Positions 7,585 to 23,704 are shown, counted from the stretch's first letter. The stretch: 64,000 nt of DNA from Acidimicrobiales bacterium (GCA_035700105.1 DASSOZ010000029.1:13605-77604); one strand, 5' to 3'. Notes: generated from the sequence alone by a model not told the origin. Translations and numbers: made by a program.

Positions 7585-8433
7585 CTATGTGAGCGCGGCG
7601 GCCAGCTCCCGCCACGTCGCCGCGGGCACCGGGGCGCGCGGATCCTCGCTGATCACCTGGATGCAGACATGGTCGGCGCCCGCGTCGCGGTGGGCGGCGA
7701 CGCGGGCGGCGATCGTGTCGATGTCGCCGCACACGATCAGCGCGTCGACCAGACGATCGCTGACCTGCTCGATGTCGTCGTCCGTGAACCCGCTGCGGCG
7801 CCAGTTGTTCGCGTAGTTGGGCAGCTGCGCGTACCCCTGCACGTTCCTCCGGGCGACCTCGCGTGCCCGGGCGACGTCGGCGTCGAGGATCACGCCCTGC
7901 TCGGGCGCGAGCAGCGCGTCCGGCCCGAGGATCTCGCGCGCCCGGGCGGTGTGGTCCGGTGTGGCGAGGTACGGGTGGGCACCGGCGGTGCGATCGCGGG
8001 CGAGCTCGAGCATCTTCGGGCCGAGCGCGGCGAGACAGCGTGACGCGGGCGGCACCGCGTCGGCGCCGTCGAGCGCGTCGAGGTAGTCGCGCACGACCGA
8101 CAGTGGACGGCGCCACGTCTCGCCGATGAGCGCGGCGTGGCTCGCGCCGAGCCCGAGCAGGACGCGCCTGCGGGTGGCGTCGTCGTGCAGTCCCGTCCAC
8201 CACGACGCGGTGTCGGTCGCGTCGTGCATCCACACGTTGAGGATGCCGGTCGCGATCGTGACCGTCGACGTCGCGGCGAGGAGCCGGTCGAGCGCGGGGA
8301 AGAGGTCGCCGCCGACATCGGGCACCCAGAGCGCGGAGAAGCCGAGCGATTCCAACTCGGCCGCGAGTTCGGTGACGCGCGCGGCGTCGCCGTAGCGCAG
8401 CTCGGGTGACCAGACGCCTGTTCCGTTCAGCAC
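7585..8433 (-). CDS. LLM-class (luciferase-like) F420-dependent oxidoreductase
   Basis: C-terminal part of ORF 7585..8964. Contains GFSALWVPD, LLGLGASH and PYLATPDHTARAREILG, a luciferase-like TIM-barrel pattern. Start set at GTG 8433, just after the upstream gene's stop. The start is uncertain. Confidence 0.7.
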   Translation of the reverse strand: MLNGTGVWSPELRYGDAARVTELAAELESLGFSALWVPDVGGDLFPALDRLLAATSTVTIATGILNVWMHDATDTASWWTGLHDDATRRRVLLGLGASHAALIGETWRRPLSVVRDYLDALDGADAVPPASRCLAALGPKMLELARDRTAGAHPYLATPDHTARAREILGPDALLAPEQGVILDADVARAREVARRNVQGYAQLPNYANNWRRSGFTDDDIEQVSDRLVDALIVCGDIDTIAARVAAHRDAGADHVCIQVISEDPRAPVPAATWRELAAALT

Positions 8434-8446
8434 CGCGGTGACGCTG

Positions 8447-9694
8447 TCACACCCGATCGAGTTCGAGCATCTTGATGGCGTTGCCCCGCAGCACCTTGTA
8501 CGCGACGTCGTCGTCGAAGCCGGCGAGCATCTTCTCGACGTAGGCCTTCGAGTCGGGCCACGTCGTGTCGGTGTGCGGGTAGTCGGTCTCGAAGCAGATG
8601 TTGTCGACGCCGACGGCGTCGAGCGACGCCAGGCCGTGGTGGTCGGCGGTGAAGCAGCCGAAGATGCGGCCGTAGTAGTAGGTCGACGGCGGCTCGGGGA
8701 CAAGCTCCTTGGAGTGCTGCCAGCTGTCGTGCTGCTCCCAGACGGTGTCGGCCCGCTCGAGCGCGTACGGGATCCAGCCGATCTGACCCTCGCTGTACGC
8801 CAGCTTGAGCTGCGGGAAGCGGATGAGGTTGCCGCTGAACAGCCAGTCGGCGAGCGACGCCATCGAGTTGTTGAACGCCAGCGTGCCGCCGACGCCGCCG
8901 GGCGCGTCGGGGCTGGCGGCCGGGTTCGTCGACGACGACCCGATGTGCATGCACAGCGTGACACCCCAGTCGTTGCACACCTGGAACAGCGGGTCCCAGT
9001 AGCCGGTGTGGATCGTCGGCAGCTTCAGGTGGTGGGGGAGCTCGCTGAAGCAGATGGCGCGCACACCGCGCTGCGCGTTGCGGAGCGTCTCGGCGGCGGC
9101 GAGCTCGACGTCCCACAGCGGGATGAGGCAGAGCGGGAGGTTGTAGCCCCGTGACGGGCCGCACCACTCCTCGACCATCCAGTCGTTGTAGGCCTTGACG
9201 CACGCGAGCCCGAGCTCCTTGTCGGCGCCCTCGTGGAACGTCTGGCCGCAGAAGCGCGGGAACGTCGGGAACGGCAGCGACCCGTCCGTCCAGTTGCGTT
9301 CGAGGTCCTCGACGCGGGCGTCGCGGTCCCAGCAGCCCTTGCGCATCTCGTCGTAGGTCACCGCGGTCATCTGCATCTGGCTGCGGTCGAAGTCGATGCC
9401 GCCGTCGCCGTCGCCCCGCTCGGTCGTCGCCGACTGCGGGATGGCGACGAACCGCTTGTGCACGTAGATGAGGCGGCCGTCGTAGTACCAGGCGTCGCCC
9501 CACATCCCGTCGGGGTCCTCGTTCATGACGTAGCGGGCGCCGGGCTGGTGCTGGAACGGACCCCACCGCTTGCGCTCGACCTTCGGCCCGCGCTCGCGGT
9601 GCTTGGCCGGCAGCCACGTCTGCCACACGTGCGCCGGCTCGACGACGTGGTCGTCGACGCTGATGATCTTGGGGAGCTCGCGCAGCGGCGCCAC
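8447..9694 (-). CDS. amidohydrolase family 2 protein (ACMSD-like metal-dependent hydrolase/decarboxylase)
   Basis: IISVDDHVVEP near the N-terminus, CMHIGSS, and C-terminal ICFETDYPHTD. Start GTG 9694 is preceded by TAACCT plus 8 nt, a leaderless-type arrangement. The ORF-track 954-aa entry is an artefactual upstream extension. Confidence 0.8.
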   Translation of the reverse strand: MAPLRELPKIISVDDHVVEPAHVWQTWLPAKHRERGPKVERKRWGPFQHQPGARYVMNEDPDGMWGDAWYYDGRLIYVHKRFVAIPQSATTERGDGDGGIDFDRSQMQMTAVTYDEMRKGCWDRDARVEDLERNWTDGSLPFPTFPRFCGQTFHEGADKELGLACVKAYNDWMVEEWCGPSRGYNLPLCLIPLWDVELAAAETLRNAQRGVRAICFSELPHHLKLPTIHTGYWDPLFQVCNDWGVTLCMHIGSSSTNPAASPDAPGGVGGTLAFNNSMASLADWLFSGNLIRFPQLKLAYSEGQIGWIPYALERADTVWEQHDSWQHSKELVPEPPSTYYYGRIFGCFTADHHGLASLDAVGVDNICFETDYPHTDTTWPDSKAYVEKMLAGFDDDVAYKVLRGNAIKMLELDRV

Positions 9695-9702
9695 GGCCCG
9701 GC

Positions 9703-9708
9703 AGGTTA
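9703..9708 (-). promoter_or_regulatory. -10-like hexamer TAACCT, 8 nt upstream of GTG 9694 (leaderless arrangement)
   Basis: Read on the minus strand. No SD lies between the hexamer and the start. The palindrome begins 7 nt further upstream. Confidence 0.45.
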
Positions 9709-9715
9709 CGCCGAC

Positions 9716-9733
9716 CCTGACACGCGTGTCAGA
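9716..9733. promoter_or_regulatory. 18-bp palindrome CCTGAC-ACGCGT-GTCAGA (core is a perfect 16-mer CTGACACGCGTGTCAG)
   Basis: Centred in the 48-bp divergent gap between the amidohydrolase start (9694) and the thiolase start (9743). Confidence 0.65.
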
Positions 9734-9742
9734 CTCCCGGCC

Positions 9743-10930
9743 GTGGCAGACATCCGTGAGGCGGTCATCGTCGACACCGTCCGCACCGCGTTCGGCAAGC
9801 GCGGTGGGGCGCTGGCGAACTGGCACCCGAGCGACCTGCTCGGGTTCACGCTGACCAACCTCCTCGAGCGCAACGACGTCGACCCGAACCTCGTCGACGA
9901 CGTCGTCGGTGGGTGCGTCACCCAGTCGGGCGAGCAGGGCTGCAACGTCACCCGCAACGCGTGGGTCGCCGCCGGGCTGCCGCAACGGGTGCCGGCGACG
10001 TCGGTCGACCGGCAGTGCGGCTCGTCGCAGCAGGCTATGCACTTCGTCGCCGCGTCGGTGATGGCCGGCGTCTACGACCTGGCGATCGCGTGCGGTGTCG
10101 AGTCGATGAGCCGGGCGCCGATGGCGTCGAACGCCCGTGGCGGGACGGGACCGTTCTCGCCGTCGTACCTCGACGCGATCGACGGCCAGCTCTGGGCGCA
10201 GTTCCGGGTCGCCCAGGTGCTCGCCGAGCGGTCGAAGATCACGCGTGAGGACATGGACGAGTACGCCCTCGAGTCGCACCGGCGTGCGGCGGCGGCGACC
10301 GACAGCGGCCACTTCGCCCGCGAGATCCTGCCGGTCCCGCTCAAGGACGAGCACGGCGACCTCACCGGCGACGTGCTGTCCGCCGACGAGGGCATCCGGC
10401 GGGGCGGGACGATGGAGTCCATGGCGAAGCTGCCACCGGCGCAGTCGTGGGAGCCGGAGACGGCGCCGGACATCACCGCCGGCAACTCGTCGCAGATGAC
10501 CGACGGCGCCGCAGCGATGCTCGTCGCGTCCTCCGACACCGCCGAGCGCCTCGGGCTGCCCGTCCGGGCCCGCGTCGCGGCGATGTCGGTCGAGGCCGAC
10601 GACGCGGTGCTCGTGCTGAGCGCCCCGAACCCCGTCACCCGCAAGCTGTTCGGGCGCTACGGCTACACCACCGACGACTTCGACGCCGTGGAGTGCAACG
10701 AGGCGTTCGCCGCCATTGCGCTCATGTGGGCGCGCGAGTTCCTCCCGGACATGGAGCGGTTCAACCCCCGCGGCGGCGCCATCGCCATCGGCCACCCGCT
10801 CGGCGCGTCGGGCGTGCGCATCACGACGACGCTGCTCAACCACCTCGAGGCCACCGGTGGCCGGCGCGGCTTCCAGACGATGTGCGAGGGCGGCGGCCAG
10901 GCGAACGCGACCGTGATCGAACGCGTGTAG
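9743..10930 (+). CDS. acetyl-CoA acetyltransferase / thiolase
   Basis: 395 aa from GTG 9743 (VADIREAVIVDTVRTAFGKRGG). Active-site context VDRQCGSSQQA, then NEAFAA, GGAIAIGHPLGASG and CEGGGQANA. Confidence 0.85.
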   Translation: MADIREAVIVDTVRTAFGKRGGALANWHPSDLLGFTLTNLLERNDVDPNLVDDVVGGCVTQSGEQGCNVTRNAWVAAGLPQRVPATSVDRQCGSSQQAMHFVAASVMAGVYDLAIACGVESMSRAPMASNARGGTGPFSPSYLDAIDGQLWAQFRVAQVLAERSKITREDMDEYALESHRRAAAATDSGHFAREILPVPLKDEHGDLTGDVLSADEGIRRGGTMESMAKLPPAQSWEPETAPDITAGNSSQMTDGAAAMLVASSDTAERLGLPVRARVAAMSVEADDAVLVLSAPNPVTRKLFGRYGYTTDDFDAVECNEAFAAIALMWAREFLPDMERFNPRGGAIAIGHPLGASGVRITTTLLNHLEATGGRRGFQTMCEGGGQANATVIERV

Positions 10931-10960
10931 CGCGGGGCTCGGTATGTCACCCTTTACGTA

Positions 10961-13900
10961 GTGGAGGGCAAAGGGGGCGTCCTCGGCACCGTGTCGGTGC
11001 TGTTCACCGATCTCGTCGGGTCGACGGAGCAGCGCGTCCGCCTCGGCGAGGACGCGGCCGACGCCCTCCGTCGCGTCCACGACGAACTCGTCGGCGCCGC
11101 CGTCGTCGGCTCGGGCGGAACCGTGGTGAAGCGTCTGGGCGACGGGGTGATGGCGACGTTCCCCGCCGCCGCCGACGCGGTCGCCGCTGCCGTCGCGATC
11201 CAGCAGGCGATCGCCCGGCACGGCGCGGCGGTGACCGACCCCGGCCGGCGACTCGCCGTGCGGATCGGCCTGTCGACCGGCGACGTCATGGTCGAGGGTG
11301 ACGACGTCCACGGCACGCCCGTCGTCGAAGCGGCCCGCCTGTGCGCGAGCGCGCTGGGTGGGGAGATCCTCGCCGCCGAGCTCGTCCGCATGCTCGCCCG
11401 CTCACGCGGCGTCGCGACGTTCGAGCCGATCGGCGACGTCGAGCTCAAGGGCCTGCCCGAGCCGGTCGCGACGTGCCGCGTGCTGTGGGAGCCGGAGGCG
11501 GACGCGGGCGGCGCTCGGCCGCCGCTGCCGCCGCTCCTCGTGGGCACCCCGGCGACGGGGTACGTCGGGCGCGACGGGCTGCGGGCGACGCTCGCGGATG
11601 CGTGGCGTGGCGTCGCCGCGGGCGGGTGCCGCGCCGTCCTGCTCGCCGGCGAGCCGGGCGTGGGCAAGACCCGGACGGCCGCCGAGCTCGCCCGGCTCGC
11701 GTACGACGAGGGCGCGGTCGTGCTCTACGGCCGCTGCGACGAGGACCTCGGCGCGCCGTACCAGCCGTTCGTCGAGGCGCTCACCGCGTACGCGATGGAC
11801 GCGCCACCCGACGGGGTGCACCTCGGTCGCCTGCCGGGCGAGCTGACCCGCCTCGTCCCCGAGCTCTCCGAGATGGTCACCGGGGTGGGCGCGCCCGTGG
11901 CGTCCGATCCGCGCTCGGAGGAGTACCGCCTGTTCGAGGCGACGGCGTCGTGGCTCGTCGACGCCGGCCGGGCGAGTGGGCTGGTGCTGGTCGTCGACGA
12001 CCTCCACTGGGCGGCTCGCCCGACGCTGCAGCTGCTGCTGCACGCGCTTCGGGCCGCATCGGCGGAGCGCGACGCCCGCGTGCTGGTGGTGGGGACGTAC
12101 CGCGACACCGACATCGACCGGTCCCACCCGCTGTCGGACGTGCTCGCCGAGCTCCGGCGCCTCCCGCTCGTGTCGCGCCTCTCCGTCGACGGGCTCACCG
12201 AGGACGAGGTCGTGGCGTTCGCCGAGGTCGCGGCCGGGCACGAGCTCGACGACACCATCCGCGCCCTTGCCCGCACGGTGCACGCGGAGACCGACGGCAA
12301 CGCCTTCTTCGTCGGCGAGGTGCTGCGACACCTCGTCGAGGTCGGCGCCGTCCGCCGCGACGGCGACCGCTGGGTCGTCGCCGCGGGCGCCGTCGACGTG
12401 CCGGAGGGTGTCCGCGATGTCGTCGGCCGGCGCGTGTCGCGCCTGTCCACCGACGCCAACACCGTCCTCTCCGTCGCGGCCGTGGTCGGGCGCGAGGGCG
12501 ACCTCGACGTGGTCGCCGAGGTGGTGGACCTGCCCGAGGGCGCAGTGCTCGACGCGTTCGACGAGGGCGTGCGCGCCAGGCTGCTCGAGGAGAGCGACGT
12601 CGACCGGTACCGCTTCGCCCACGCGCTCGTGCGGACGACGCTGTACGACGAGCTGTCGGCGACCCGGCGGCGCCGGCTGCATCGACGCATCGCGGAGACG
12701 CTGGAGAAGCTGCATCGCGACGACGTGGTCGCGCTGGCCTATCACTCGTTGCAGGCGGGTCCCGACGGTGGCGACGCGACGCGCGCCGCTCGGTACTCGA
12801 TGGCTGCGGGCGACCAGGCGTTGGCGCAGCGGGCCCTGGCCGACGCCGAGGTTCGGTACCGCACCGCGCTGGAGCTCGTCGACGACAGCGGCATCGTCGA
12901 CGAGGACGTCCGGCTGCGCGCCATGTGCGGGCTGGGCGAGGCCCTGCGTGACCAGGCCCGCCCCGAATACCGCGAAACGCTCCTGCGCGCCGCCCGCGAC
13001 GCGCGGACGGCCGGCCTCACGGACCTGCTCGTGCGGGCCGTGCTGTCGAACGACCGCGGCTACGCGTCGATGATCGGGCGCGTCGACGACGAGCGGGTCG
13101 AGATGATCGAAGCCGCGCTTGCCGCCGTCGGCGACGCGCCGACCGCGGAACGCATCCGACTCGTCGCGCTGCTGTCGCAGGAGCTGTTCTTCGGGCCGCA
13201 GCGCGACCGCGCCCGCCGGCTCGGTGCCGAGGCAGAAGCACTGGCACGCGACGTCGACGACGACCGGCTCCGCTGCGAGGTCGTCATCCGCTGCGGCCTC
13301 TCGAGGATCCACCAGATCCCCTTCCCGGAGTACCTGGTACGGATCGAAGAGGGCGCGGCGATCGCCGAGCGGCTCGGCGATCCGGCCCTTCGCGTTGTCA
13401 CCGGGTTGTTCCTGTCGTCGGCACGGCTGACCGTCGGCGACGTCGACGGCGGCCGGGCCGCGGACGCGGCCAACGTTGCGGGCGCGTCGGATGGCTCGCC
13501 GTCACTCGTGTGGACGGCGAGGTCACACGCGATGAAGTGGGCGGTGGCGTGCGACCCGATCCCGGTGTCGACGGCGGCGAACGACGAGTGCCGCGACATG
13601 GGCGAGCGCGCGGGCGAGCCCGACCATCTCAACTGGTGGGCGGCGACGTTCGGCGCGATCGACATGATGCGTGCCGGCGACGTCGCCGCGCTGGCCGACG
13701 TCGCCGGCGCCTACGCGGCCGAGTACCCGGGCGCGCCCACGTGGCGGATGTTGCAGGCGCTCGCACTCGCCGACGCAGGCCGGGTCGACGAGTGCGACGC
13801 GCTGATATCGCGCCACGGCCTCGACCCCCGCCGGCTCATCGACGAGCCGTTCCCGTTCGTCGCCGCCGCGGGATGGGCACGACTCGCGCACCGCCTACGG

Positions 13901-14254
13901 CGGCCCGACATGGCGCGGGACGCCGCCGAACTGCTCACGCCGCATTCGGGGCTCTGGACGCACTTCTTCCTCGCGACCTGGGGTCCGGTCGACTACGACC
14001 TCGCGCTCTGCGCGTCGTTGCTCGGCGAGCACGACCGTGCCGTCGAGCTCGCCACCGGTGCGCTCGCGATCGTCGCCGACGCCGGGATGGTCACGCTGCG
14101 CGACCACCTGTCGCTCGGTGTCGCCGACGTACTGCGTGGCGCGGGGCACGGCGACCGCGCCCGCACGCTGCTGCGCGAGGTCGTCGACAGCACCGCGGTG
14201 ACCGGTGCCGACGGCGTGCGCGCACGGGCGCTGGCGATGCTCGGGGAGGTCTGA
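10961..14254 (+). CDS. class III adenylate/guanylate-cyclase-homology domain + P-loop STAND/AAA ATPase + TPR-like helical repeats; no DNA-binding domain seen
   Basis: N-terminus VSVLFTDLVGST...VKRLGDGVMATF (cyclase homology). Walker A LLAGEPGVGKTRTA, then VLVVDDLHWA. The long C-terminal alpha-repeat region ends without a LuxR-type HTH. Confidence 0.8.
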   Translation: MEGKGGVLGTVSVLFTDLVGSTEQRVRLGEDAADALRRVHDELVGAAVVGSGGTVVKRLGDGVMATFPAAADAVAAAVAIQQAIARHGAAVTDPGRRLAVRIGLSTGDVMVEGDDVHGTPVVEAARLCASALGGEILAAELVRMLARSRGVATFEPIGDVELKGLPEPVATCRVLWEPEADAGGARPPLPPLLVGTPATGYVGRDGLRATLADAWRGVAAGGCRAVLLAGEPGVGKTRTAAELARLAYDEGAVVLYGRCDEDLGAPYQPFVEALTAYAMDAPPDGVHLGRLPGELTRLVPELSEMVTGVGAPVASDPRSEEYRLFEATASWLVDAGRASGLVLVVDDLHWAARPTLQLLLHALRAASAERDARVLVVGTYRDTDIDRSHPLSDVLAELRRLPLVSRLSVDGLTEDEVVAFAEVAAGHELDDTIRALARTVHAETDGNAFFVGEVLRHLVEVGAVRRDGDRWVVAAGAVDVPEGVRDVVGRRVSRLSTDANTVLSVAAVVGREGDLDVVAEVVDLPEGAVLDAFDEGVRARLLEESDVDRYRFAHALVRTTLYDELSATRRRRLHRRIAETLEKLHRDDVVALAYHSLQAGPDGGDATRAARYSMAAGDQALAQRALADAEVRYRTALELVDDSGIVDEDVRLRAMCGLGEALRDQARPEYRETLLRAARDARTAGLTDLLVRAVLSNDRGYASMIGRVDDERVEMIEAALAAVGDAPTAERIRLVALLSQELFFGPQRDRARRLGAEAEALARDVDDDRLRCEVVIRCGLSRIHQIPFPEYLVRIEEGAAIAERLGDPALRVVTGLFLSSARLTVGDVDGGRAADAANVAGASDGSPSLVWTARSHAMKWAVACDPIPVSTAANDECRDMGERAGEPDHLNWWAATFGAIDMMRAGDVAALADVAGAYAAEYPGAPTWRMLQALALADAGRVDECDALISRHGLDPRRLIDEPFPFVAAAGWARLAHRLRRPDMARDAAELLTPHSGLWTHFFLATWGPVDYDLALCASLLGEHDRAVELATGALAIVADAGMVTLRDHLSLGVADVLRGAGHGDRARTLLREVVDSTAVTGADGVRARALAMLGEV

Positions 14255-15411
14255 TGTCGATCGTCGACGAGCCCGATCCGTACGAGCTGTGGCGCGAGGC
14301 GCGCGCGAGTTGCCCGGTCGGCAAGGTGGCCGACGAGGACGTGTCCGGCGGGCGCGAGGTCTGGTGGGTCACGCGGTTCGCCGACGTCGAGCACGTGCTG
14401 CGAGACGGCGACACGTTCTCGTCGCGGATCAACGACGAGACGATGGGCCCGGTGATGGGCACGACGCTCATCGCCATGGACGGCGCCGAGCACCGGCGTC
14501 ACCGCGACCTCGTCGCCAAGGCGTTCCGCCCGTCGGCGGTCGAACGGTGGGGTGAGGAGCTGATCCGCCCGACGACCGTCGCGCTGCTCGAACGGATCGC
14601 TCGCCGGGGCGACCGGCGGGCCGACCTCGTCGCCGACCTCACGCACCGCTATCCGGTGCAGATCATCGCCGCCATCCTCGGCGTGCCAGTCGAGGACCAC
14701 GAGCTGTTCCAGGAGTGGGCCGAGGGCATCAACCACGGTCCCACCGACCTGTCGAGGTCACTGCCGGCGTCGAAGGCGATGACGGAGTACCTGCGCCCGA
14801 TCGTCGAGGCGCGACGGGCTGCGCCGACCGACGACCTGCTCAGCGACCTCGTCACCGCCGAGGTCGACGGCCACACGCTCGACGAGGAGCACCTGTACGG
14901 CTTCCTCCGCCTCCTGCTGCCGGCCGGGGCCGAGACGACGTACCGCATGCTCGGGTCGTTGCTGCACTCGCTCCTGACGCACCCCGACGCGCTCGAGGAG
15001 GTGCGGGTCGACCGCACGCTCGTCGGCGCGGCGATCGAGGAGACGCTGCGGTTCGAGACGTCGGTGACGATCGTCAACCGTGAGCCGCTCGACGACGCCG
15101 ATGTCGGCGGCTGCATCGTTCCCGCCGGTGTGTCGCTGCTCGTCGCCACCGGCAGCGCCAACCACGACGAGTCGCGCTACGCGCGACCCGACGAGTGGGA
15201 CCTCCACCGGCCCCCTACGCCGCACCTCGCCTTCGGCACCGGCCGGCACCAGTGCCTCGGGATGCACCTCGCCCGCCTCGAGCTGCGCATCGCGCTCGAG
15301 GAGGTGCTCGACCGGTTGCCGGGGCTGCGGCTCGACCCGGACGACCCGGTCCCACCGATCACCGGCTTCGCCTTCCGGTCGCCGGCCCGCCTCCCCGTCG
15401 TCTTCGACTGA
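14254..15411 (+). CDS. cytochrome P450
   Basis: 385 aa. I-helix AGAETT, ExxR (ETLRFE) and heme-Cys loop FGTGRHQCLGMHLA. Its ATG overlaps the upstream TGA (TGATG). Confidence 0.9.
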   Translation: MSIVDEPDPYELWREARASCPVGKVADEDVSGGREVWWVTRFADVEHVLRDGDTFSSRINDETMGPVMGTTLIAMDGAEHRRHRDLVAKAFRPSAVERWGEELIRPTTVALLERIARRGDRRADLVADLTHRYPVQIIAAILGVPVEDHELFQEWAEGINHGPTDLSRSLPASKAMTEYLRPIVEARRAAPTDDLLSDLVTAEVDGHTLDEEHLYGFLRLLLPAGAETTYRMLGSLLHSLLTHPDALEEVRVDRTLVGAAIEETLRFETSVTIVNREPLDDADVGGCIVPAGVSLLVATGSANHDESRYARPDEWDLHRPPTPHLAFGTGRHQCLGMHLARLELRIALEEVLDRLPGLRLDPDDPVPPITGFAFRSPARLPVVFD

Positions 15412-15435
15412 CGCCCCCGGCGACGCGATCGGTCC

Positions 15436-16113
15436 CTAGCCCAGCCTGGGGAGGCGGCGGTTGCAGGCGTCGAGCACGGCCCGCGCCACCGCGTCGGCCA
15501 CACCGGCCCCACCTGGGTCGCGCACGACCGCCGACCCGCACACCGTCTCCTCGAACGGCGGTACGGCGAACACGACGCTCGCGAGGGCGGCGTCGCGGTT
15601 GCCCGCCCGCACGACCGTCGCCATCTCCACGTCGGCGCAGTCGGCGGCCGGGAACAGGCGCCGCAGCGCCTCGAGCGTCGCCTGGGCCACGAGGCGGGGC
15701 TGCGCCGACGTCGCGACCGATCCCTCGGACTCGGCGCTCGCGACCTCGCCGCCCTGACCGAGCGTCACCTGCACGCGCGTCCGGACGCCGTGCGACGCGA
15801 GGTCGATGCGCTCGATCGTGACGCGGTTCCGCGTCGGGGCGTCGGCCGACGCCATGACGGCGGCGTCGTCGCCGGGCCCGCCCTCGAGCTGCACGACCGA
15901 GATGATGCGGCGGTCGAGATCGAGCCCGAACGTCGCCATGGCGACGGACTGGATGTCGCGCACGATCTGCTTGGCGTGCTTCTCCAGCGTCGCGAGGACG
16001 TGCACCTCGATCGGCCGCCCGATCTCGTCGTCGACGATCCGCACGGCACTGACTGCCGGGATGCGGCACAGCGCCTCTTCCACCTCGCACACGGCGAGTG
16101 TCCCGATGTCCAT
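15436..16113 (-). CDS. hypothetical cytoplasmic protein, apparently two domains, family not recognised
   Basis: 225-aa ORF with coding-type GC3 bias and no TM segment or signal peptide. It is the last gene on the same strand after the SDR and ADH genes. Confidence 0.55.
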   Translation of the reverse strand: MDIGTLAVCEVEEALCRIPAVSAVRIVDDEIGRPIEVHVLATLEKHAKQIVRDIQSVAMATFGLDLDRRIISVVQLEGGPGDDAAVMASADAPTRNRVTIERIDLASHGVRTRVQVTLGQGGEVASAESEGSVATSAQPRLVAQATLEALRRLFPAADCADVEMATVVRAGNRDAALASVVFAVPPFEETVCGSAVVRDPGGAGVADAVARAVLDACNRRLPRLG

Positions 16114-16186
16114 CCCGTTCGCGTCGGCACCGGACGGTTCGCAGCGATCCGTCGACCGGCGGACTACCGCGCGGTAACGGGGTTGG

Positions 16187-17437
16187 TCACCGCTGGTCGA
16201 TCGTGACCTTGACCGCGCCCGTGCGGCCCTGGTCGGCGATGCACACCATCGCGTCGCGCCACTCGTCCAACCGGAACGAGTGCGTCAGCATCGGCGTGAG
16301 GTCGATGCGGCCGGCGGCGACGAGATCGAGGTGGTGCTGGATGCCGTGCCGGCGCACGCCCTCGATCTCCTCGATGCCGAACGCGTTGGAGCCGACCCAA
16401 CTGATCTCCTTGAAGTACAGGGGGCTCCACTCCCAGCGACCCGAACCGTGGAAGCCGCTCTTCACGAGCGTGCCCCGCGCCTTCAGCAGGCGTACCCCCA
16501 CCTCGAACGTCTCCGGCTTGCCCACGGTGTCGTAGACGACGTCGATGCCACCGGGGTGCGCCATCGGCAACCCCTGCATCGGCTGGCGCAACCGCCCGCC
16601 GGACCACGCGGCGAGCTCCTCGACGATGCGCAGCCGGTCGTCCGACGGCAAGACGATCGACGCGCCCAGCTTCTCGGCCAGGCGCTGCTGCGCGTCGAAC
16701 CGGGCGACGACGGCGACCTCGACCGACGGGTACAGCGCCCGCAGGATCGCGACGGCGCAGGTGCCGAGCGACCCGGCGCCGTAGACCAGCACGCGCCCGC
16801 CCTCGGGCGGTGGGTGGCGGGTGATCGAGTGCAGCGACACGGCGAACGGGTCGGCGGTGACGGCCTGCTCGTCGCTGAGCGACGCCGGAACCGGGAACAG
16901 CATCGACGGGTGCGCGGGCATGCGCTCGGCGTAGCCACCCGTCGCGTCCGCCGACACGCCGGAGTGGATGCCGACCGAGATCGACCCTTCGGCGAACGAC
17001 CAGCACAGGCTGTAGTCACCGGCCTCGCACGCCGGGCACACGGGGTCGATGCCGCGGGGCACGCACGACAGCCACGGGTTCAGCACGACCCGCTGTCCGA
17101 CGTCGATGCCCCAACGGTCGGCTTCGGGGCCGAGCTCGACGACCTCGCCGACGACCTCGTGCCCGAGCACCTGCGGGAACGAGCAGAACGCCGACATCGC
17201 GTTGTCGGCCTCGTCGTCGCCGAAGTCCAGCAGTATCTGCTTGGCGTCGCTTCCGCAGATGCCGACGAGGCGCGGCGCGACGACGACCCAGTCGGGGCGC
17301 AGGGGCCGGGCGTCGGGGACGTCGCGCAGCGCGACCGGCGTCGCCGCGAGGTTCTGCACGAGTCGGTTGTCCTCGAGTCCCGCCGGCGGGGTCCACGAGT
17401 CGGCCGGACCGTCGCCGAGGAAGACGAGCGCCTTCAC
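16187..17437 (-). CDS. zinc-dependent alcohol dehydrogenase (MDR family)
   Basis: GICGSDAKQ, GHEVVGEVVELG, the CPACEAGDYSLC structural-Zn loop, and a VYGAGSLG Rossmann motif. Confidence 0.85.
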   Translation of the reverse strand: MKALVFLGDGPADSWTPPAGLEDNRLVQNLAATPVALRDVPDARPLRPDWVVVAPRLVGICGSDAKQILLDFGDDEADNAMSAFCSFPQVLGHEVVGEVVELGPEADRWGIDVGQRVVLNPWLSCVPRGIDPVCPACEAGDYSLCWSFAEGSISVGIHSGVSADATGGYAERMPAHPSMLFPVPASLSDEQAVTADPFAVSLHSITRHPPPEGGRVLVYGAGSLGTCAVAILRALYPSVEVAVVARFDAQQRLAEKLGASIVLPSDDRLRIVEELAAWSGGRLRQPMQGLPMAHPGGIDVVYDTVGKPETFEVGVRLLKARGTLVKSGFHGSGRWEWSPLYFKEISWVGSNAFGIEEIEGVRRHGIQHHLDLVAAGRIDLTPMLTHSFRLDEWRDAMVCIADQGRTGAVKVTIDQR

Positions 17438-18228
17438 GCCGACGTCCCCTGCGTTCTGCCCATCTGGGCGACGCCGGCGAGGTAACCGTCGACGTCGGCG
17501 GTCTTGCCCTCGACGATCGCGCCGAGGTCGGGCACGTACGTCTCGAACCGGTCGCCGCCGATGGCGGCGACGATGCCGGCAGCGACGTCCTCGGGCGGGA
17601 ACTTCGGCCCGTCGTACACCGGGTCGTCGCTGCCGGGGTGGTCCCAGATCTCGGTGTCGATCGGACCGGGCTGCACGAGGCGGACGTCAACGCCGGTGTC
17701 CCAGAGGTCGATCGCCATCGCCTCGCTCCAGCCGGACAGGGCGAACTTCGACGCGCAGTACGCGGCCTCGTGGACGATGCCGAGCCGGCCGCCCATCGAC
17801 GCGACGTTCACGATCACGCCCTCGCCCCGCTCGAGCATGCGGGGGAGGGCGGCGAGGATCATCCGCACCGGCGACGTGAAGTTGACCGTCATCACCTCGT
17901 CGACCTCGGCGGGCGTGAGCTGCTCGACGCGCCGGCGCTTCGGCATCGCCGCGTTGTTCACGAGTACGTCGAGGTGACCGAACGCCCGCCACGCGTCGTC
18001 GACGGTCCGGGCTGCGGCGTCGGGGTCGGCGAGGTCGGCGACCCACATGCGGCTGCCCGTCGCGCCGGCGGCGTGGCAGTCGTCGAGGACCTCCTTCAGG
18101 CGGTCCTCTCGCCGGGCGACGAGCCCGACGGTCGCGCCGTCGGACGCGAGCCTCCGTGCCAGCGCGGCGCCGATTCCCGAGGACGCGCCGGTGACGAGCA
18201 CGTTGCGACCGGCGACGTCGATTCCCAT
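17434..18228 (-). CDS. short-chain dehydrogenase/reductase (SDR)
   Basis: VLVTGASSGIGAA, NNAA and YCASKFAL. Its stop overlaps the ADH start by 4 nt. TAGCGT plus 8 nt lies upstream of ATG 18228. Confidence 0.9.
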   Translation of the reverse strand: MGIDVAGRNVLVTGASSGIGAALARRLASDGATVGLVARREDRLKEVLDDCHAAGATGSRMWVADLADPDAAARTVDDAWRAFGHLDVLVNNAAMPKRRRVEQLTPAEVDEVMTVNFTSPVRMILAALPRMLERGEGVIVNVASMGGRLGIVHEAAYCASKFALSGWSEAMAIDLWDTGVDVRLVQPGPIDTEIWDHPGSDDPVYDGPKFPPEDVAAGIVAAIGGDRFETYVPDLGAIVEGKTADVDGYLAGVAQMGRTQGTSA

Positions 18229-18267: not shown

Positions 18268-18329
18268 GTCGTGGTCGTAGCACCATCGACCGATGGTCGT
18301 TGCGACGTGTGCGGGCGGACGATCACCAC

Positions 18330-18806
18330 ATGCGCAAGCCGATCATCTCGTGGACCATCGGAGCCGTCGCCGTCGCCATGCTCGGCGCCGGCCTCCTCAC
18401 GGCCGCCCGGGCGGTCGACACCAGCCCGGACCCGCAGGTGGTGCTGACGAACAGCCGTCATGGCGGCACCGACGACGGTGCGCCGTCGAGCTCGTCCACG
18501 TCGACGTCGACCTCGTCGGTCCCCACGTCCGTGCCGGGCTCGGTGCCGTCCTCGACCGTGACCTCGATCGACGACCACGGCCGCAACCGCGGGCCCGGTG
18601 GCGGTGGGGACGACGACCCGGCGACCCACGACGTCGGCGACGACCACGGCGGCGACGACGACACCACCGTGTCCACGACGGCGTCGACGACGGCGACCAC
18701 CACCATCGACGACCACGGCGGCCACCGTGCCGACGACGACCCGGCGACCCACGACGTCGGCGACGACCACGGCGGCACCAGCGGCGGCCACGGCGCCGAC
18801 GACTGA
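18330..18806 (+). CDS. secreted Asp/His/Thr-rich repeat protein (hypothetical; possible metal-binding)
   Basis: MRKPIISWTIGAVAVAMLGAGLLTAARA is a signal/anchor-like N-terminus. An S/T-rich linker follows, then the duplicated module IDDHG...DDDPATHDVGDDHGG. An alternative upstream start exists at 18300. Confidence 0.6.
   Translation: MRKPIISWTIGAVAVAMLGAGLLTAARAVDTSPDPQVVLTNSRHGGTDDGAPSSSSTSTSTSSVPTSVPGSVPSSTVTSIDDHGRNRGPGGGGDDDPATHDVGDDHGGDDDTTVSTTASTTATTTIDDHGGHRADDDPATHDVGDDHGGTSGGHGADD
18609..18653 (+). repeat. 45-bp exact direct repeat, copy 1 (intragenic)
   Basis: GACGACGACCCGGCGACCCACGACGTCGGCGACGACCACGGCGGC is identical to 18732..18776. The 123-bp offset equals 41 codons. Confidence 0.9.
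18732..18776 (+). repeat. 45-bp exact direct repeat, copy 2 (intragenic)
   Basis: Identical to 18609..18653. Encodes DDDPATHDVGDDHGG. Confidence 0.9.
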
Positions 18807-18842
18807 CGCCCCCGCCGGCCGCACGCGACCGGCCCCCGTCCC

Positions 18843-18893
18843 CGAACTCGGCGTAGATCTGTACCGCAGAGGTACGGATCTACGCCGAGTTCG
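18843..18893. repeat. 51-nt palindromic repeat, family 1 copy B (probable bidirectional terminator)
   Basis: CGAACTCGGCGTAGATCTGTACC-GCAGA-GGTACGGATCTACGCCGAGTTCG. It ends 1 nt before the stop codon of the convergent response regulator. Confidence 0.8.
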
Positions 18894-19505
18894 TCAGTGG
18901 GACAGGTTGTCGCGGGCCCAGAGGGCGGCCTGGGTCCGGTCGGTCACGCCGAGCTGCTGGAAGATGTTCGTGAGGTGCGCCTTGACCGTGCGCTCGGTGA
19001 TCGAGAGGCGGCGGGCGATCTGCTTGTTCGCCAGACCCTCGGCCACCAGCGCCAGCACCTCCCGCTCGCGGTCGCTCAGGCGTCGCGCCGGCCCGCCGAC
19101 CCGCCGGCGCTCGAGCAGCACCCGTGCGGCCTTCGGGTCGAGCGGCACGTCGCCCGCCGCCGCGGCCCGGACGGCCGCCAGCACCTCGTCGGGCGTCGCG
19201 TCCTTGAGGATGTAGCCGCACGCGCCGGCGTCGAGCGCGTCGACGATGCGGCGTTCGTCGGCGAACGACGTCAGCACGACGACCCGGGCACCTTCGCCGA
19301 TGCGGCGCGTCGCTTCCACCCCGTCGACGCCGGGCATGGACAGGTCCATGAGGACGACGTCGGGTGCCGTCGACGTGACCAGCTCGACGGCCTCGTCGCC
19401 GTCACCGGCGGTGCCGACGACGTCGACGTCGTCGGCGCTCCCGAGGAGCTGCGCCAGTCCCTGCCGGACGACGGCGTGGTCGTCCACGACGAGAACCCGG
19501 ATCAC
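18894..19505 (-). CDS. NarL/LuxR-family two-component response regulator
   Basis: Receiver motifs VLVVDDHAVVRQGL and DVVLMDLSMPGVDG. C-terminal LuxR HTH LSDREREVLALVAEGLANKQIARRLSITERTVKAH. Confidence 0.9.
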   Translation of the reverse strand: MIRVLVVDDHAVVRQGLAQLLGSADDVDVVGTAGDGDEAVELVTSTAPDVVLMDLSMPGVDGVEATRRIGEGARVVVLTSFADERRIVDALDAGACGYILKDATPDEVLAAVRAAAAGDVPLDPKAARVLLERRRVGGPARRLSDREREVLALVAEGLANKQIARRLSITERTVKAHLTNIFQQLGVTDRTQAALWARDNLSH

Positions 19506-20833
19506 GACAGCGGCACCTCCATCCGCACGAGCGTCCCTCGACCGGGCGCGGCGTCGACCGTCAGCGTCGCGCCCGCGTCACGGGCGAGGCCGGCGAGTCC
19601 CCGCAGGCCGAGGTGCCCGGACGACGCCGCCGACGCGGCGTCCTCGGGGGAGAAGCCGGCCCCGTCGTCGGTCACGGACACGCATGCCCGCTCGGCGTCG
19701 CTCTCGGCGACGACCGCCACGGACGTCGCGCCGGCGTGGGCGGCGACGTTGCGGAGCGCCTCGCGGGCGGTGCGGTAGAGCAGCGCACGCGCCGACGCCG
19801 GCAGCTCGTCGGACGCCAGACGCTCGGTGTCGAGTGACACCGACACGCCGGTCGCGGCGACGCCGTCGGCCAGGTCGGCGAGCGCGGCCGCCACGCCGCC
19901 GGGGCCGTCGAGGTCGGCCGGGTAGATGTCGACGAGCATCGAGCGCAGTTCGGTGATCGTCGACCGGATCGATCCGGCCGCGGAGTCGAGCAGCGTCGAC
20001 GCCGGTGTTCCCGCCACGGACGCGTCCCGCGCCGCGCCCGCCAGGCTGAACGCGACGCCGGCCAGCGCCTGCACCGGTCCGTCGTGGAGATCGGACGCGA
20101 CGCGGCGGCGCTCGATGTCGGACGCGTCGAGCGCCCGCCGCAGCAGCGCTTCCTGGACGCGCTGGCGGTGCTGGAGCCGCCGGGCCAGCGACCACGCCAG
20201 CGGGATCTGGAGCACCTCGAGCAGGACGAGCGCGCCGAGCGAGATCGGGGCGAAGCTGCGCCAGATCCTCGATCCCGAGGCCGCGACCGTGTCGTAGCGG
20301 TAGTACGCCTCGAACAGCAGGCGGTCGCCGCCGGGCGTCACGATCGGCAGGTACACCTCGAGCAGCTTCCCGAACGAACGCTCGAACCGGTTCTCGGGCT
20401 TGGTGAGGTCGCTGACCTCGGCTTCGATGAGGCCACCCCGCAGCGCGGCGAGCTCGTCGTCGCCCAGCGCGTAGCGCGCACCGACGAGGCGACGTTCGTC
20501 GGAGTAGACGATCTCGCCGGTGGACGTCCAGATCTTCACCCGCACGAGCGAGTCGTCGAGGACGTCGCGCTCGACGACGTCGCCGACGCTTCGCACGGCG
20601 TCCGGGTCGCGCGCGACGAGCCCGTCGGTGATGACGGGCTCGACACGACCCTGGGCTTTCACGAGCGTCGTCGTGCGTGCATCGGTGATCGCCTCGCGCT
20701 CGCCGACGCGCCGGCTGGCGACCGACGTGGCGGCGCCGACGAGGGCGACGGCGGCGAGCCCGATGAGCGTGAACTGCACGACGGGCCGGGCGACGACCCA
20801 TCGCAACGACGACGGTGTGCTCGCCCCGGTCAT
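19502..20833 (-). CDS. sensor histidine kinase (HisKA_3 / NarX-DesK type) with extracytoplasmic sensor domain
   Basis: N-terminal TM segment, then a ~170-aa loop and a second TM segment. H-box RRRVASDLHDGPVQ. ATPase region GFSPEDAA...GHLGLRGL. 4-nt overlap with the response regulator gene. Confidence 0.85.
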   Translation of the reverse strand: MTGASTPSSLRWVVARPVVQFTLIGLAAVALVGAATSVASRRVGEREAITDARTTTLVKAQGRVEPVITDGLVARDPDAVRSVGDVVERDVLDDSLVRVKIWTSTGEIVYSDERRLVGARYALGDDELAALRGGLIEAEVSDLTKPENRFERSFGKLLEVYLPIVTPGGDRLLFEAYYRYDTVAASGSRIWRSFAPISLGALVLLEVLQIPLAWSLARRLQHRQRVQEALLRRALDASDIERRRVASDLHDGPVQALAGVAFSLAGAARDASVAGTPASTLLDSAAGSIRSTITELRSMLVDIYPADLDGPGGVAAALADLADGVAATGVSVSLDTERLASDELPASARALLYRTAREALRNVAAHAGATSVAVVAESDAERACVSVTDDGAGFSPEDAASAASSGHLGLRGLAGLARDAGATLTVDAAPGRGTLVRMEVPLS

Positions 20834-20852
20834 CGGGGGAGCAGGTTAGGGA

Positions 20853-21209
20853 TCAGCGGATGACCGTCTTGCCGGGCTCGTAGCGGAAGTCGAACTTCTC
20901 GCCGGTGTCCCGGTTCTCGAACCGGATCTCGACACGGTTCTTGTCGCTGGCGGAGGTGCCGCCGGCGGACTTCACCTGGTACGTCCAGCCGGGTTGCACG
21001 TTCGTGACGGCGACGAGGCGGATGCCGACGGACGTGTCGAGCACGACGCAGGCGACACCGTCCAGCGGGTAGTTCCACGGGTTGGTCGACATGTCCCAGC
21101 TGCACGGCAGCTCCGCGGACGCGGGTGCGGCGGTGGCGAGCGGCACGCCGGCGACGGCGGCCGCGATCGTGACGGAGGCGAGGGTGCGACGGATGCGGTG
21201 TCGGTTCAT
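20853..21209 (-). CDS. small secreted protein (118 aa), hypothetical
   Basis: ATG 21209 gives MNRHRIRRTLASVTIAAAVAGVPLATAAPASA, a signal peptide. The mature part has 2 Cys. It lies immediately upstream of, and co-oriented with, the kinase gene. Confidence 0.6.
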   Translation of the reverse strand: MNRHRIRRTLASVTIAAAVAGVPLATAAPASAELPCSWDMSTNPWNYPLDGVACVVLDTSVGIRLVAVTNVQPGWTYQVKSAGGTSASDKNRVEIRFENRDTGEKFDFRYEPGKTVIR

Positions 21210-21259
21210 GCCGGCGACTGTGCGGTCCACCCGGTCGGGCCGGCCAGTGTCCGATGGTG

Positions 21260-23281
21260 CTACGACCTCATCGGCCGGAGGTCGAGCCGGCGGAGCAGCT
21301 GGGCGTTCAGCGCGACGACGATCGTCGACAGGCTCATGAGCACGGCGCCGACCGCGGGCGGCAGCGTGAAGCCCGCCCACGCGAGCGCGCCGGCGGCGAG
21401 CGGGATGGCGACGACGTTGTAGCCGGCGGCCCAGCCGAGGTTCTGCAGCATCTTGCGGTAGCTCGCCTGGCTGAGGCGGATCACCGACACGACCGCGCGG
21501 GGGTCGGAGCTGGCGAGGATGACGCCGGCCGACTCGATGGCGACGTCGGTGCCAGCGCCGATGGCGAGGCCGACGTCGGCCCGCGCCAGCGCGGGCGCGT
21601 CGTTGACGCCGTCGCCGACCATCGCCACCTTCAGGCCACGTCGCTGCAGCTCGGCGACCTTGGCGTCCTTGTCCTCGGGCAGGACCTCGGCCATCACCTC
21701 GTCGACGCCGAGATCGGCACCGACCGCGTCGGCGACCTGCCGTGCGTCACCGGTGATCATCACGACGCGCCGGCCCATCGCCCGCAGGTCGTGGACGGCC
21801 TGACGCGCCTCGGGACGGACCTCGTCCTCGAGCTCGAACGCGGCGACGACATCGTCGCCACGGACGAGGTAGAGGACGGCCGCACCTCGCTTTCGCCACA
21901 CGTCGGCGTCGGCGGTGAGGGCGGCCGGTTCGTCGAGCCCGCGTTCGCGCAGCAGCGCGGGCCCGCCGACGGCGTGGCGCGTGCCGTCGATCGTCGCCTC
22001 GACACCGCGGCCGGTGATCGACCGGAAGTCGGACGCCGAGGGAGCCGCGGTCGCGGACGTCACCGCGCTGGCGCGCACGATGGCGCGCGCCAGCGGGTGC
22101 TCGGAGTCGGCCTCGACGGCGGCGGCGAGGTGGAGCGCGTCGTCAGTCGTCAGCGCACCGGTCGTGGCCACACCGGTGACGGCGTGCTCACCCTTCGTCA
22201 GGGTGCCGGTCTTGTCGAACAGCACGGTGTCGACAGTGCGCATGCGCTCGAGCGCGAGGCGGTCCTTCACCAGGATGCCGGCGCGGGCGCCGATCGCCGA
22301 CGACAGCGACACCACGAGCGGGATGGCGAGGCCGAGCGCGTGCGGGCAGCTGATGACGAGGACGCCGACGGTGAGCAGCACCGCCCGGTCGGCGTCGCCC
22401 GCCGCCAGCCACGCGACGAGCGTGATGACCGCGGCGCCGGCGGCGACGTAGAAGAGCAGCGCGGCGGCGCGGTCGGCAAGCGCCTGGGCGCGGCTGCGGC
22501 TCTCCTGGGCCTGGGTCACGAGACGCTGGATGCCGGCGAGCGCGGTGTCCTCGCCGACGGCGTCGACACGGACGCGGATCGCCGAGTCGGTCGACACCGT
22601 GCCGGCGACGACGCGATCGCCCGTGGTCTTGGCGACCGGGCGCGACTCGCCGGTGATCATCGACTCGTCGAGCTCGGCGCGCCCGTCGACGATCTCGCCG
22701 TCGGCCGGGACCCGGCCGCCGCTACGGACGAGGACCGTGTCACCGGCGCGCAGGTCGTTGAGCGCGACGGTCTCGGTCGTCCCGTCGGAGGCCAGGCGCT
22801 CGGCCTCGTCAGGGAGCAGCGCGGCGAGCGCGCCGAGCGCGTCCTGCGCCTGGCCGAGCGCCTTCATCTCCTGCCAGTGCCCGAGCAGCATGATCGTCAC
22901 CAGTGCGGCGAGCTCCCACCAGAACTCCTGGTCGAACCAGTCGAGCGAGTTGGCGAGCGACGCGCCGTACGCCACGGTCAGGGCCATCGCGATCAGCAGC
23001 ATCATGCCGGGCCGTCGCGTGCGGGCCTCGTCGACGCCACCGGTGAGGAACGGCCAGCCCGCCCACAGGAACACGACGGTGCCGAGCACCGGCCCGACCC
23101 ACTCGATGCCGGCGAAGTCGAGCTCGTAGCCGAGCCAGTCCATGACCATCTCGCTCGTGACGACGATCGGGACGGTGAGCAGCAGGCTCCACCAGAAGCG
23201 CGTCCGGAACACCGCGGCGTGGTCGGCGTGCCCGTGATGGCCGTGGTGCCCGTGATCGTGATCGTGCCCGTCGTGTTCCAT
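21260..23281 (-). CDS. heavy-metal (copper) P1B-type ATPase, CopB-like
   Basis: TGES, the CPH transmembrane metal motif (ISCPHALG), DKTGTLT and GDGVNDAP. His-rich N-terminus MEHDGHDHDHGHHGHHGHADH replaces an HMA domain. Confidence 0.9.
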   Translation of the reverse strand: MEHDGHDHDHGHHGHHGHADHAAVFRTRFWWSLLLTVPIVVTSEMVMDWLGYELDFAGIEWVGPVLGTVVFLWAGWPFLTGGVDEARTRRPGMMLLIAMALTVAYGASLANSLDWFDQEFWWELAALVTIMLLGHWQEMKALGQAQDALGALAALLPDEAERLASDGTTETVALNDLRAGDTVLVRSGGRVPADGEIVDGRAELDESMITGESRPVAKTTGDRVVAGTVSTDSAIRVRVDAVGEDTALAGIQRLVTQAQESRSRAQALADRAAALLFYVAAGAAVITLVAWLAAGDADRAVLLTVGVLVISCPHALGLAIPLVVSLSSAIGARAGILVKDRLALERMRTVDTVLFDKTGTLTKGEHAVTGVATTGALTTDDALHLAAAVEADSEHPLARAIVRASAVTSATAAPSASDFRSITGRGVEATIDGTRHAVGGPALLRERGLDEPAALTADADVWRKRGAAVLYLVRGDDVVAAFELEDEVRPEARQAVHDLRAMGRRVVMITGDARQVADAVGADLGVDEVMAEVLPEDKDAKVAELQRRGLKVAMVGDGVNDAPALARADVGLAIGAGTDVAIESAGVILASSDPRAVVSVIRLSQASYRKMLQNLGWAAGYNVVAIPLAAGALAWAGFTLPPAVGAVLMSLSTIVVALNAQLLRRLDLRPMRS

Positions 23282-23298
23282 CGGGACGACTCTATACT

Positions 23299-23315
23299 AT
23301 ACCCCCCCAGGGTAT
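23299..23315. promoter_or_regulatory. G/C-tract palindrome ATACCC-CCCCA-GGGTAT (CsoR-type operator-like), overlapping a TATAGT -10-like box
   Basis: Sits in the 33-bp gap directly upstream of the ATPase start. On the minus strand the sequence reads GATACCCTGGGGGGGTATAGTATAGAGTCGTCCCG-ATG. Confidence 0.5.
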
Positions 23316-23686
23316 CAAGCGGGGGAGGGTCGGAGGCGGCGGCGGCGCGACGGCGGCACGTCGACCGTCTCGTGCACCCGCGTCACGCCACGGGTCGCCC
23401 GCGCCAGGTCGACGGCGGCGTCGCGGGCCGCGGCCGGCGCCGTGCCCGTCAACCGGGCGACGCCGTCCACGACGGATACGGCGAGCGTCGCGGCCCGCGT
23501 TCGCGTGTCCGCCGCCAGCGACGCCCGTAGCCGGAGCTCCGCCCGTGCGTCGTCGAGCGACCCGCCCCGCACGAGCGACGACGCCGACCGCCCGGCGAAG
23601 TGCGCCCAGTCGGCGATCGACGCACGGTTGCGCCACGCCCACATGGCGAGGCCGAGGCGGGAAAGGGGGAGCAGGCGACGGAGCAT
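23315..23686 (-). CDS. BON-domain protein
   Basis: 123 aa with an N-terminal hydrophobic segment and the BON-like pattern LAVSVVDGVARLTGTAPAAARDAAVDLARATRGVTRVHETVDV. Confidence 0.55.
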   Translation of the reverse strand: MLRRLLPLSRLGLAMWAWRNRASIADWAHFAGRSASSLVRGGSLDDARAELRLRASLAADTRTRAATLAVSVVDGVARLTGTAPAAARDAAVDLARATRGVTRVHETVDVPPSRRRRLRPSPA

Positions 23687-23704
23687 GTGACCGCCTGTTC
23701 CCTC

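Follow-up and report, generated by a model that had tools for sequence, protein, structure and literature searches.

A cyclase-STAND-TPR protein of an Acidimicrobiales bacterium: its Asn-less cyclase motif, its family and its cytochrome P450 neighbour

We analysed a stretch of 64,000 nucleotides from an Acidimicrobiales bacterium (GCA_035700105.1, DASSOZ010000029.1:13605-77604; hereafter the window, in which positions are counted from the first letter), and in particular a gene whose 1097-residue product joins a cyclase-homology domain to a STAND ATPase core and a C-terminal arm of TPR-like helices, and whose stop codon overlaps the start of a cytochrome P450 gene. The gene proves to be ordinary, one of very many that share an architecture which is annotated but apparently unstudied. 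The cyclase head, which like most of the family has no Asn in the transition-state motif, is probably not degenerate: judged from its sequence, a working cyclase that uses ATP is the parsimonious reading. The pairing with the P450 looks lineage-specific rather than a conserved partnership, being found among near relatives whose STAND proteins are at least 77% identical, and the simplest history appears to be that the STAND gene entered, once and recently, an older thiolase-P450-alcohol dehydrogenase (ADH)-short-chain dehydrogenase/reductase (SDR) block, where it split the thiolase from the P450.

The protein and its family

What kind of protein is this? The sequence-only reading, an earlier account made by a model from the DNA letters, had described a protein of 1097 residues with cyclase-homology, STAND ATPase and TPR parts and no LuxR-type helix-turn-helix (HTH), and that description agrees with Pfam, AlphaFold2 and Foldseek. 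The open reading frame (ORF) is a real gene, since its G+C at third codon positions (GC3) is 0.93 and a deposited NCBI protein, P0001, from an Acidimicrobiales metagenome-assembled genome and named 'AAA family ATPase', is 100% identical to its product. The gene and its parts are as follows.

10961..14254, plus strand: cyclase-STAND-TPR gene, 1097-aa ORF with GTG start (GC3, Pfam, AlphaFold2)
10979..11485, plus strand: class III (IIIc-like) cyclase-homology domain, residues ~7-175 (PF00211, phmmer, Foldseek)
11312..11341, plus strand: motif GTPVVEAARL, residues 118-127 (alignments to 3mr7 and Ma1120, family column counts)
11564..12190, plus strand: STAND nucleotide-binding domain, AAA_16 (Pfam, conserved Walker residues)
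11648-11671, plus strand: Walker A, GEPGVGKT, residues 230-237
11981-12001, plus strand: Walker B, LVLVVDD, residues 341-347
12191..12760, plus strand: helical and winged-helix domains of the STAND core, residues ~411-600 (AlphaFold2, Foldseek to 6mfv)
12761..14251, plus strand: TPR-like helical-repeat region, putative sensor, residues ~601-1097 (AlphaFold2, TPR_12 in relatives)

The head has a class III cyclase-homology fold by three measures. Pfam places Guanylate_cyc (PF00211) at residues 9-164 with 30.4 bits against a cut-off of 21.9, phmmer matches the head to Ma1120 of M. avium at E 1.4e-22, and Foldseek superposes it on the ligand-bound Ma1120 structure in the PDB with a template-modelling (TM) score of 0.93 and a root-mean-square deviation of 1.5 A. 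In the AlphaFold2 model, built from 49 homologues (pLDDT 88.5, pTM 0.75), a linker without structure at residues ~176-204 joins the cyclase fold to a P-loop nucleotide-binding oligomerisation domain (NOD) at 205-410, where Pfam finds AAA_16 at 202-377 with 97 bits. Among homologues the Walker residues G230, E231, P232, G233, G235, K236, T237, D346 and D347 are invariant, as expected of a STAND NOD with both Walker A and Walker B. The NOD is followed by helical and winged-helix domains and then by unbroken helical hairpins at residues ~607-1096, which is the STAND order of parts (AlphaFold2, Foldseek to 6mfv, and TPR_12 in 16 of 39 relatives). The TPR-like region is the fastest-evolving part of the protein, with 53-81% identity among close relatives compared with 85-92% for the NOD and winged-helix core. 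Neither GerE nor any other HTH was found in the 1097 residues by Pfam at E<=0.01, and when the C-terminal 200 residues were compared with the GerE domain of a response regulator encoded in the window, no similarity emerged. In NCBIfam no family scores above its cut-off for the STAND protein, for the P450 or for a 225-residue ORF (orf225) that lies beyond the P450.

How unusual is this arrangement? A word-indexed search brought up over 6000 homologues; of the best 120, every one except a truncated match carries the cyclase, AAA_16 or both, with or without TPR, and most are ~1100 aa long. An exhaustive search of 1.84 billion cluster representatives (50% identity) gave 14,655 matches at E<=1e-30; among the best 150, most have ~1090-1110 aa and can be aligned over their full length. 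Pfam scans of 39 diverse representatives found AAA_16 in 39, Guanylate_cyc in 34, TPR_12 in 16, BTAD in 9 and Trans_reg_C in 8. GerE is present in none of these 39, nor in any of the best 120 homologues, so that the absence of an HTH, correctly seen in this protein, is no anomaly; the HTH-less form is the family norm. Members are found mainly in Acidimicrobiia, Thermoleophilia and Solirubrobacterales, and are abundant in soil Actinomycetota. In the literature we found LuxR-type mycobacterial proteins and general cyclase papers, and no characterised HTH-less cyclase-AAA_16-TPR protein.

Some relatives do bind DNA, to judge from their domains, and these are AfsR-like SARP proteins, not LuxR-like ones. 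Nine of the 39 representatives, longer than the rest at 1185-1399 aa (P0252, P0278, P0300, P0303, P0315, P0330, P0350, P0356 and P0376), have an N-terminal SARP, made of Trans_reg_C plus BTAD in eight and of BTAD only in one. The SARP replaces the cyclase head in some of them, and about four appear to read SARP-cyclase-STAND-TPR.

Other variants of the family were seen in passing. Locus L006 has tandem paralogues at 7980-11273 and 11270-14566, which overlap by 4 nucleotides and have the same full set of residues in both copies. A heterodimer of tandem copies in the C1/C2 manner was considered and set aside: the L006 copies share the full residue set, and the supposed second copy in L027 is no homologue. 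Mycobacterium and Mycolicibacterium have giant ORFs of ~2475-3370 aa in which an N-terminal class III cyclase precedes AAA_16; their cyclase motifs read LTDIEGST ... GRAVNRAARLR, with the canonical Asn retained (L045, L052, L055, L056, L058, L061, L063, L064, L067, L070 and L074-L076, most starting near 8000). The exhaustive representative search also includes proteins of 2050-3257 aa.

The cyclase head and the likely output of the switch

Does the head retain what a class III cyclase needs? The relevant motifs are FTDLVGST at residues 15-22, LGDGVMATF at 59-67 and GTPVVEAARL at 118-127. Across 118 full-length homologues of ~50% overall identity, D61 and R126 are present in all, and D17, K57 and D115 in 116 each; the two exceptions at D17 are alignment gaps, and both metal-binding Asp residues are in place. 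K57 and D115 align with K101 and D157 of Ma1120, the Lys/Asp substrate pair for ATP, and for that reason ATP is the predicted substrate. The transition-state Asn-Arg pair is incomplete. Counting Gly118 as 0, the canonical G-D-x-V-N-x-A-x-R-L has Asn at +4 and Arg at +8; here Arg126 is kept at +8 and the Asn site is Val122, in a register that agrees with 3mr7 (GDAVNVAARL). Ma1120 reads GRNVAMAAR, and aligns with its Asn opposite Pro120 and its Ala164 at the canonical site. Since the two candidate sites are occupied by Pro120 and Val122, the Asn is absent in either register.

The same replacement runs through the family. Pro120 is accompanied by Val or Ile122 in 99 of the 118 homologues, and the canonical A/T120 with N122 is found in only 8, all among the most distant (47-49% identity; G-T-A-V-N-E-A-A-R-L). 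A further 142 representatives of 50% clusters include 91 with G-x-P-x-[VI] and 10 with the canonical Asn. G-x-P-V-[VI]-E-A-x-R-L is the Asn-less signature of most of the family, and because the motif is so widespread it is an old, conserved signature and not decay in this one gene. Nor is the Asn universal in active class III cyclases. Ma1120 is an active adenylyl cyclase with Ala164 at the Asn site and R168 kept, and the A164N change sharply lowers its activity (PMC4215837); Rv1900c, likewise active, carries His at the canonical Asn site (PMC4886424).

The sequence-only reading was right about the metal-binding Asp residues and about the missing Asn in GTPVVEAARL. From the latter it supposed a degenerate, perhaps regulatory, domain, and this the comparisons do not support. 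In the structure-based scoring of catalytic residues that it proposed, five of the six are kept in a fold that matches Ma1120, and the Asn/Arg pair lacks one partner. One might still picture a pseudo-enzyme that binds ATP or metal, or dimerises, and makes no cyclic nucleotide, serving as the regulatory or scaffold head of a STAND oligomer. The change of the transition-state Asn to Val together with a Pro two residues earlier would suit such a role, as would a Pfam score of just 30 bits for the domain; moreover, because eight distant members retain the canonical Asn, the P-V-V form must be derived. Pseudo-enzymes, however, usually lose residues of the kind that are held here almost without exception at ~50% identity, Ma1120 and Rv1900c work with Ala and His in place of Asn, and the fold lies within 1.5 A of a ligand-bound cyclase. 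We consider a pseudo-enzyme unlikely, and prefer a working, ATP-using cyclase because all but one of the six catalytic residues are conserved, with the Lys/Asp pair unbroken. Two considerations temper that preference. The precedent is inexact, with Pro120/Val122 here facing Asn162/Ala164 in Ma1120, and for the HTH-less family cyclase activity and ATP specificity are predictions from sequence.

How might such a protein be controlled? We think it rather probable that it is a soluble signalling protein, most likely a ligand-gated adenylyl cyclase activated by oligomerisation. Its catalytic activity and its gating we infer, the mechanism being drawn by analogy with the MalT, AfsR and PH0952-type STAND proteins. 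The TPR arm would hold the ADP-bound STAND switch closed, and binding of a ligand or partner to this fast-evolving arm would open it. ATP binding to the opened switch would then drive oligomerisation, and the oligomer would bring the cyclase heads into head-to-tail dimers, turning on synthesis of cyclic AMP (cAMP). Class III cyclases need head-to-tail dimers for catalysis. A bolder version takes the Asn-less head as a catalytically distinct subclass, with another product or a strict dependence on oligomerisation, and supposes that its capture into the thiolase-P450 operon in this lineage was selected since the TPR region reads an intermediate of that pathway; this is a long shot, and if true would wire a metabolite-gated cAMP signal to a catabolic P450 operon.

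Could the protein instead be a conflict or anti-phage receptor of the Avs-like STAND kind, whose cyclase is a signal-generating effector in the Pycsar manner? The layout of STAND, effector and repeat sensor would be the expected one, the sensor region evolves fast, the distribution is patchy and insertion-like with a tandem duplicate in L006, and PADLOC gives a weak PycC match (31.6 bits) through the generic cyclase fold. PADLOC gives no match to a STAND or Avs model, though, and among 53 genes flanking family members no effector gene is conserved. The genes around the STAND gene are housekeeping catabolic ones, its GC content is like that of the surrounding genome, and among DNA-binding relatives the closest, AfsR-like SARP regulators, belong to a signalling lineage. 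A defence role seems to us very remote indeed, and the ligand-gated cyclase stays the preferred reading.

Two of the 53 flanking genes surveyed in loci L003-L082 encode cNMP_binding and Patatin domains, and these neighbours might be candidate cyclic-nucleotide effectors; a re-scan of candidate genes did not recover them. In L024 the upstream neighbour of the family member is a LipJ-like hydrolase-cyclase fusion.

Which known systems does the protein resemble? Rv0386, Rv1358 and Rv2488c likewise start with a class IIIc cyclase, continue with a MalT/AAA_16-type ATPase and have TPR-like helices, and the mycobacterial cyclase-ATPase-LuxR regulators are of similar length, ~1085-1160 aa (10.1101/2024.03.06.583649). 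The Rv0386 type ends in a C-terminal LuxR/GerE HTH, which the window protein lacks. In Rv0386 the substrate residues are reported by Castro et al. 2005 to be Gln/Asn, with the transition-state Asn retained, whereas the window protein has the Lys/Asp pair and no Asn. For the head alone, class IIIc Ma1120 and Rv1900c (LipJ) are the closest, Ma1120 being the best match in both sequence and structure and sharing the Lys/Asp pair, the metal Asp pair and the Arg; neither has the canonical Asn. Ma1120 is a stand-alone protein and Rv1900c is fused to a hydrolase, and neither is linked to a STAND module.

For the remainder of the protein, homologues of both STAND core and TPR arm are found in AfsR-type large SARP proteins (SARP plus NOD plus TPR). 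When the family profile was compared with the PDB, AfsR (8k60, 8jke) was the sole STAND-type regulator among the best 60 of 141 matches, with E 8e-8, a weak match; the other matches listed are generic TPR and PPR proteins. A single-sequence search of the PDB with residues 191-1097 gave no match. AfsR begins with a DNA-binding SARP; the window protein has no OmpR-type plus BTAD unit and carries the cyclase in that position, which would make its output a second messenger and not direct activation of transcription. The best whole-chain Foldseek match is the PH0952-type STAND-TPR protein 6mfv (E 2.8e-12 over 761 aligned columns), which like MalT has the order NOD, winged helix, TPR; it is 13% identical in sequence and has a different effector domain. 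The cyclase, AAA_16 and helical parts also align to positions 314-917 of the TOMM kinase/cyclase fusion model TIGR03903 (E 2.2e-44). Membership of that family was rejected: the score is 151.7 against a cut-off of 705.75, the match begins past the kinase part of the model, and the protein has neither a kinase domain nor TOMM genes around it. Overall the window protein resembles, in function, a MalT/AfsR-type STAND switch with an Ma1120-like class IIIc cyclase as its output.

The locus itself is minor, a single representative of a family that numbers thousands, and its position next to a P450 is a local rearrangement. The family outweighs it, as it would clearly illustrate how a STAND switch can drive a second-messenger cyclase, and in its relatives AfsR-like SARP heads for DNA binding are exchanged for the cyclase or added to it. 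Together with Ma1120 and Rv1900c, it would also argue that the 'essential' class III Asn can be dispensed with in the IIIc lineage.

The P450 gene and the history of the pair

The sequence-only reading had further noted that the stop of the STAND gene overlaps the ATG of a complete P450 with no adjacent ferredoxin or reductase, and on these points it was accurate. The genes concerned are these.

14252..14256, plus strand: TGATG stop/start overlap of the STAND gene and the P450 (TGA 14252-14254 shares its A, at 14254, with ATG 14254-14256)
14254..15411, plus strand: cytochrome P450, complete, 385 aa (Pfam p450, 115 bits, and motifs)
9743..10930, plus strand: thiolase (Pfam; true start near 9743-9752; 90% identical to the thiolase of contig L083 from 9752 on)

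The P450 has its I-helix motif AGAETT at residue 224, ETLR at 263 and the haem loop FGTGRHQCLG at 327. No ferredoxin or reductase adjoins it, its neighbours besides the STAND gene being the thiolase, orf225, ADH and SDR, and redox partners are equally absent beside the P450 in the orthologous blocks L083 and L084.

Are the two genes partners? The pair is kept in a few contigs. L001 (STAND 85%, P450 88% identical) and L002 (77% and 92%) have the pair and the TGATG overlap, and L086/L087 have STAND at 78% (a partial ORF in L086) and P450 at 86%, with the overlap kept in L086. The genes that flank the pair in these contigs match those of the window at 85-95% identity, so the contigs represent one lineage and are not independent evidence. 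Beyond them the pair disappears. Not one of 80 genome loci of relatives at most 52% identical has a P450 adjoining the STAND gene, and only 5 of the 80 have any P450-like match within 8 kb. The nearest outgroup STAND protein, P0005 (57% identical), is encoded between opposite-strand neighbours with no P450. A census of 53 genes flanking family members yielded 92 Pfam families, none in more than 3 genes and none of them P450, and no conserved partner gene emerged from it. P450 orthologues, for their part, occur without the STAND gene in L083, L084, L088 and L089. Two P450s, P0135 and P0129 (69% identical), stand beside aldolase II and CoA-transferase genes; they are probable paralogues and were not used for the thiolase link.

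The blocks that have no STAND gene suggest how the pair arose. L083 is collinear with the window through a HydA-like gene (86% identical), HydB (92-93%), thiolase (90%), P450 (78%), ADH (81%), SDR (76%) and two acyl-CoA dehydrogenases (88% and 72-73%), in the same order; in it, 7 nucleotides separate the stop of the thiolase from the start of the P450, and there is neither a STAND gene nor orf225. In L084/L085, where the P450 is 68% identical, the thiolase is again directly followed by the P450. Because thiolase directly precedes P450 in both of these blocks, the STAND gene appears to have been inserted. Such an event, confined to one narrow lineage, would have given an older lipid-catabolic block its TGATG junction and trimmed the N-terminus of its P450; the STAND-linked P450s lack 12-15 N-terminal residues that are present in all unlinked orthologues.

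The sequence-only reading made more of the pair, proposing an unusual STAND and P450 module in which the TPR region senses a molecule made or destroyed by the P450 (or by the thiolase/ADH/SDR pathway), and in which translational coupling sets stoichiometry or co-expression. In its favour, the TGATG overlap is shared by the window, L001, L002 and L086, thiolase, STAND gene and P450 form a same-strand run with a 30-nucleotide gap and a 1-nucleotide overlap, and the window and L002 share an almost unchanged 30-nucleotide leader before the STAND gene. But short stop/start overlaps are common in the window, being found in 3 of 23 same-strand neighbour pairs of a rough gene list, and as they are routine the junction carries little weight alone. 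The linked contigs point to a single event, the 80 loci and the neighbour census have no adjoining P450, the P450 does without the STAND gene in the orthologous blocks, and the block has other lineage-specific gains (orf225, and a two-component system plus P-type ATPase in place of an AMP-binding gene). In the loci surveyed, the co-occurrence of this STAND subtype with P450 genes, proposed as a test, does not extend beyond the close relatives. We therefore hold the module to be quite improbable, and think that the STAND protein probably has no functional tie to the P450.

Against the insertion history a few observations should be set. The TGATG is kept in all four linked contigs even though the TPR region has diverged to 53-77% identity, which is compatible with selection for co-expression. 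A promoter and terminator scan of 9000-16300 gave no sites, a result uninformative on operon structure, which is accordingly inferred from spacing alone. The databases contain no relatives of the linked clade between 77% and 57% identity; because intermediates are absent, the age and direction of the event rest on parsimony, with two outgroup blocks, and on the short P450 N-terminus.

Neighbouring genes and further observations

The minus-strand genes downstream of the P450 are listed here.

15436..16113, minus strand: orf225, 225-aa ORF (high GC3)
16187-17437, minus strand: Zn-ADH (Pfam; 81% identical to the L083 gene)
17434-18228, minus strand: SDR (Pfam; 76% identical to the L083 gene)
18894-20833, minus strand: NarL-type two-component system, between the SDR and acyl-CoA dehydrogenase genes
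21260-23281, minus strand: P-type ATPase, between the SDR and acyl-CoA dehydrogenase genes

For orf225 neither Pfam, NCBIfam nor PADLOC gave a match. L001 and L002 have it with 81-91% conservation and L086 and L083 do not, which makes it a second lineage-specific gene beside the P450. The interval between the SDR and acyl-CoA dehydrogenase genes also differs in content, 18300-24230 in the window corresponding to 9252-10694 in L083, where an AMP-binding (acyl-CoA synthetase-like) gene occupies the place of the two-component system and P-type ATPase. The thiolase-P450 block is a hotspot of gene turnover.

Spurious long ORFs lie over real genes at 8447-11311 on the minus strand (954 aa) and at 13510-15411 on the plus strand (633 aa, the P450 frame extended upstream). 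These are typical of DNA that is, like the window, 72% G+C, where ORF length alone is weak evidence.

The spacer of 30 nucleotides between thiolase and STAND gene (10931-10960, GCGGGGCTCGGTATGTCACCCTTTACGTA) is nearly identical in L002 (~633-663), where the STAND protein is 77% identical, and may be a regulatory or translation-initiation element.

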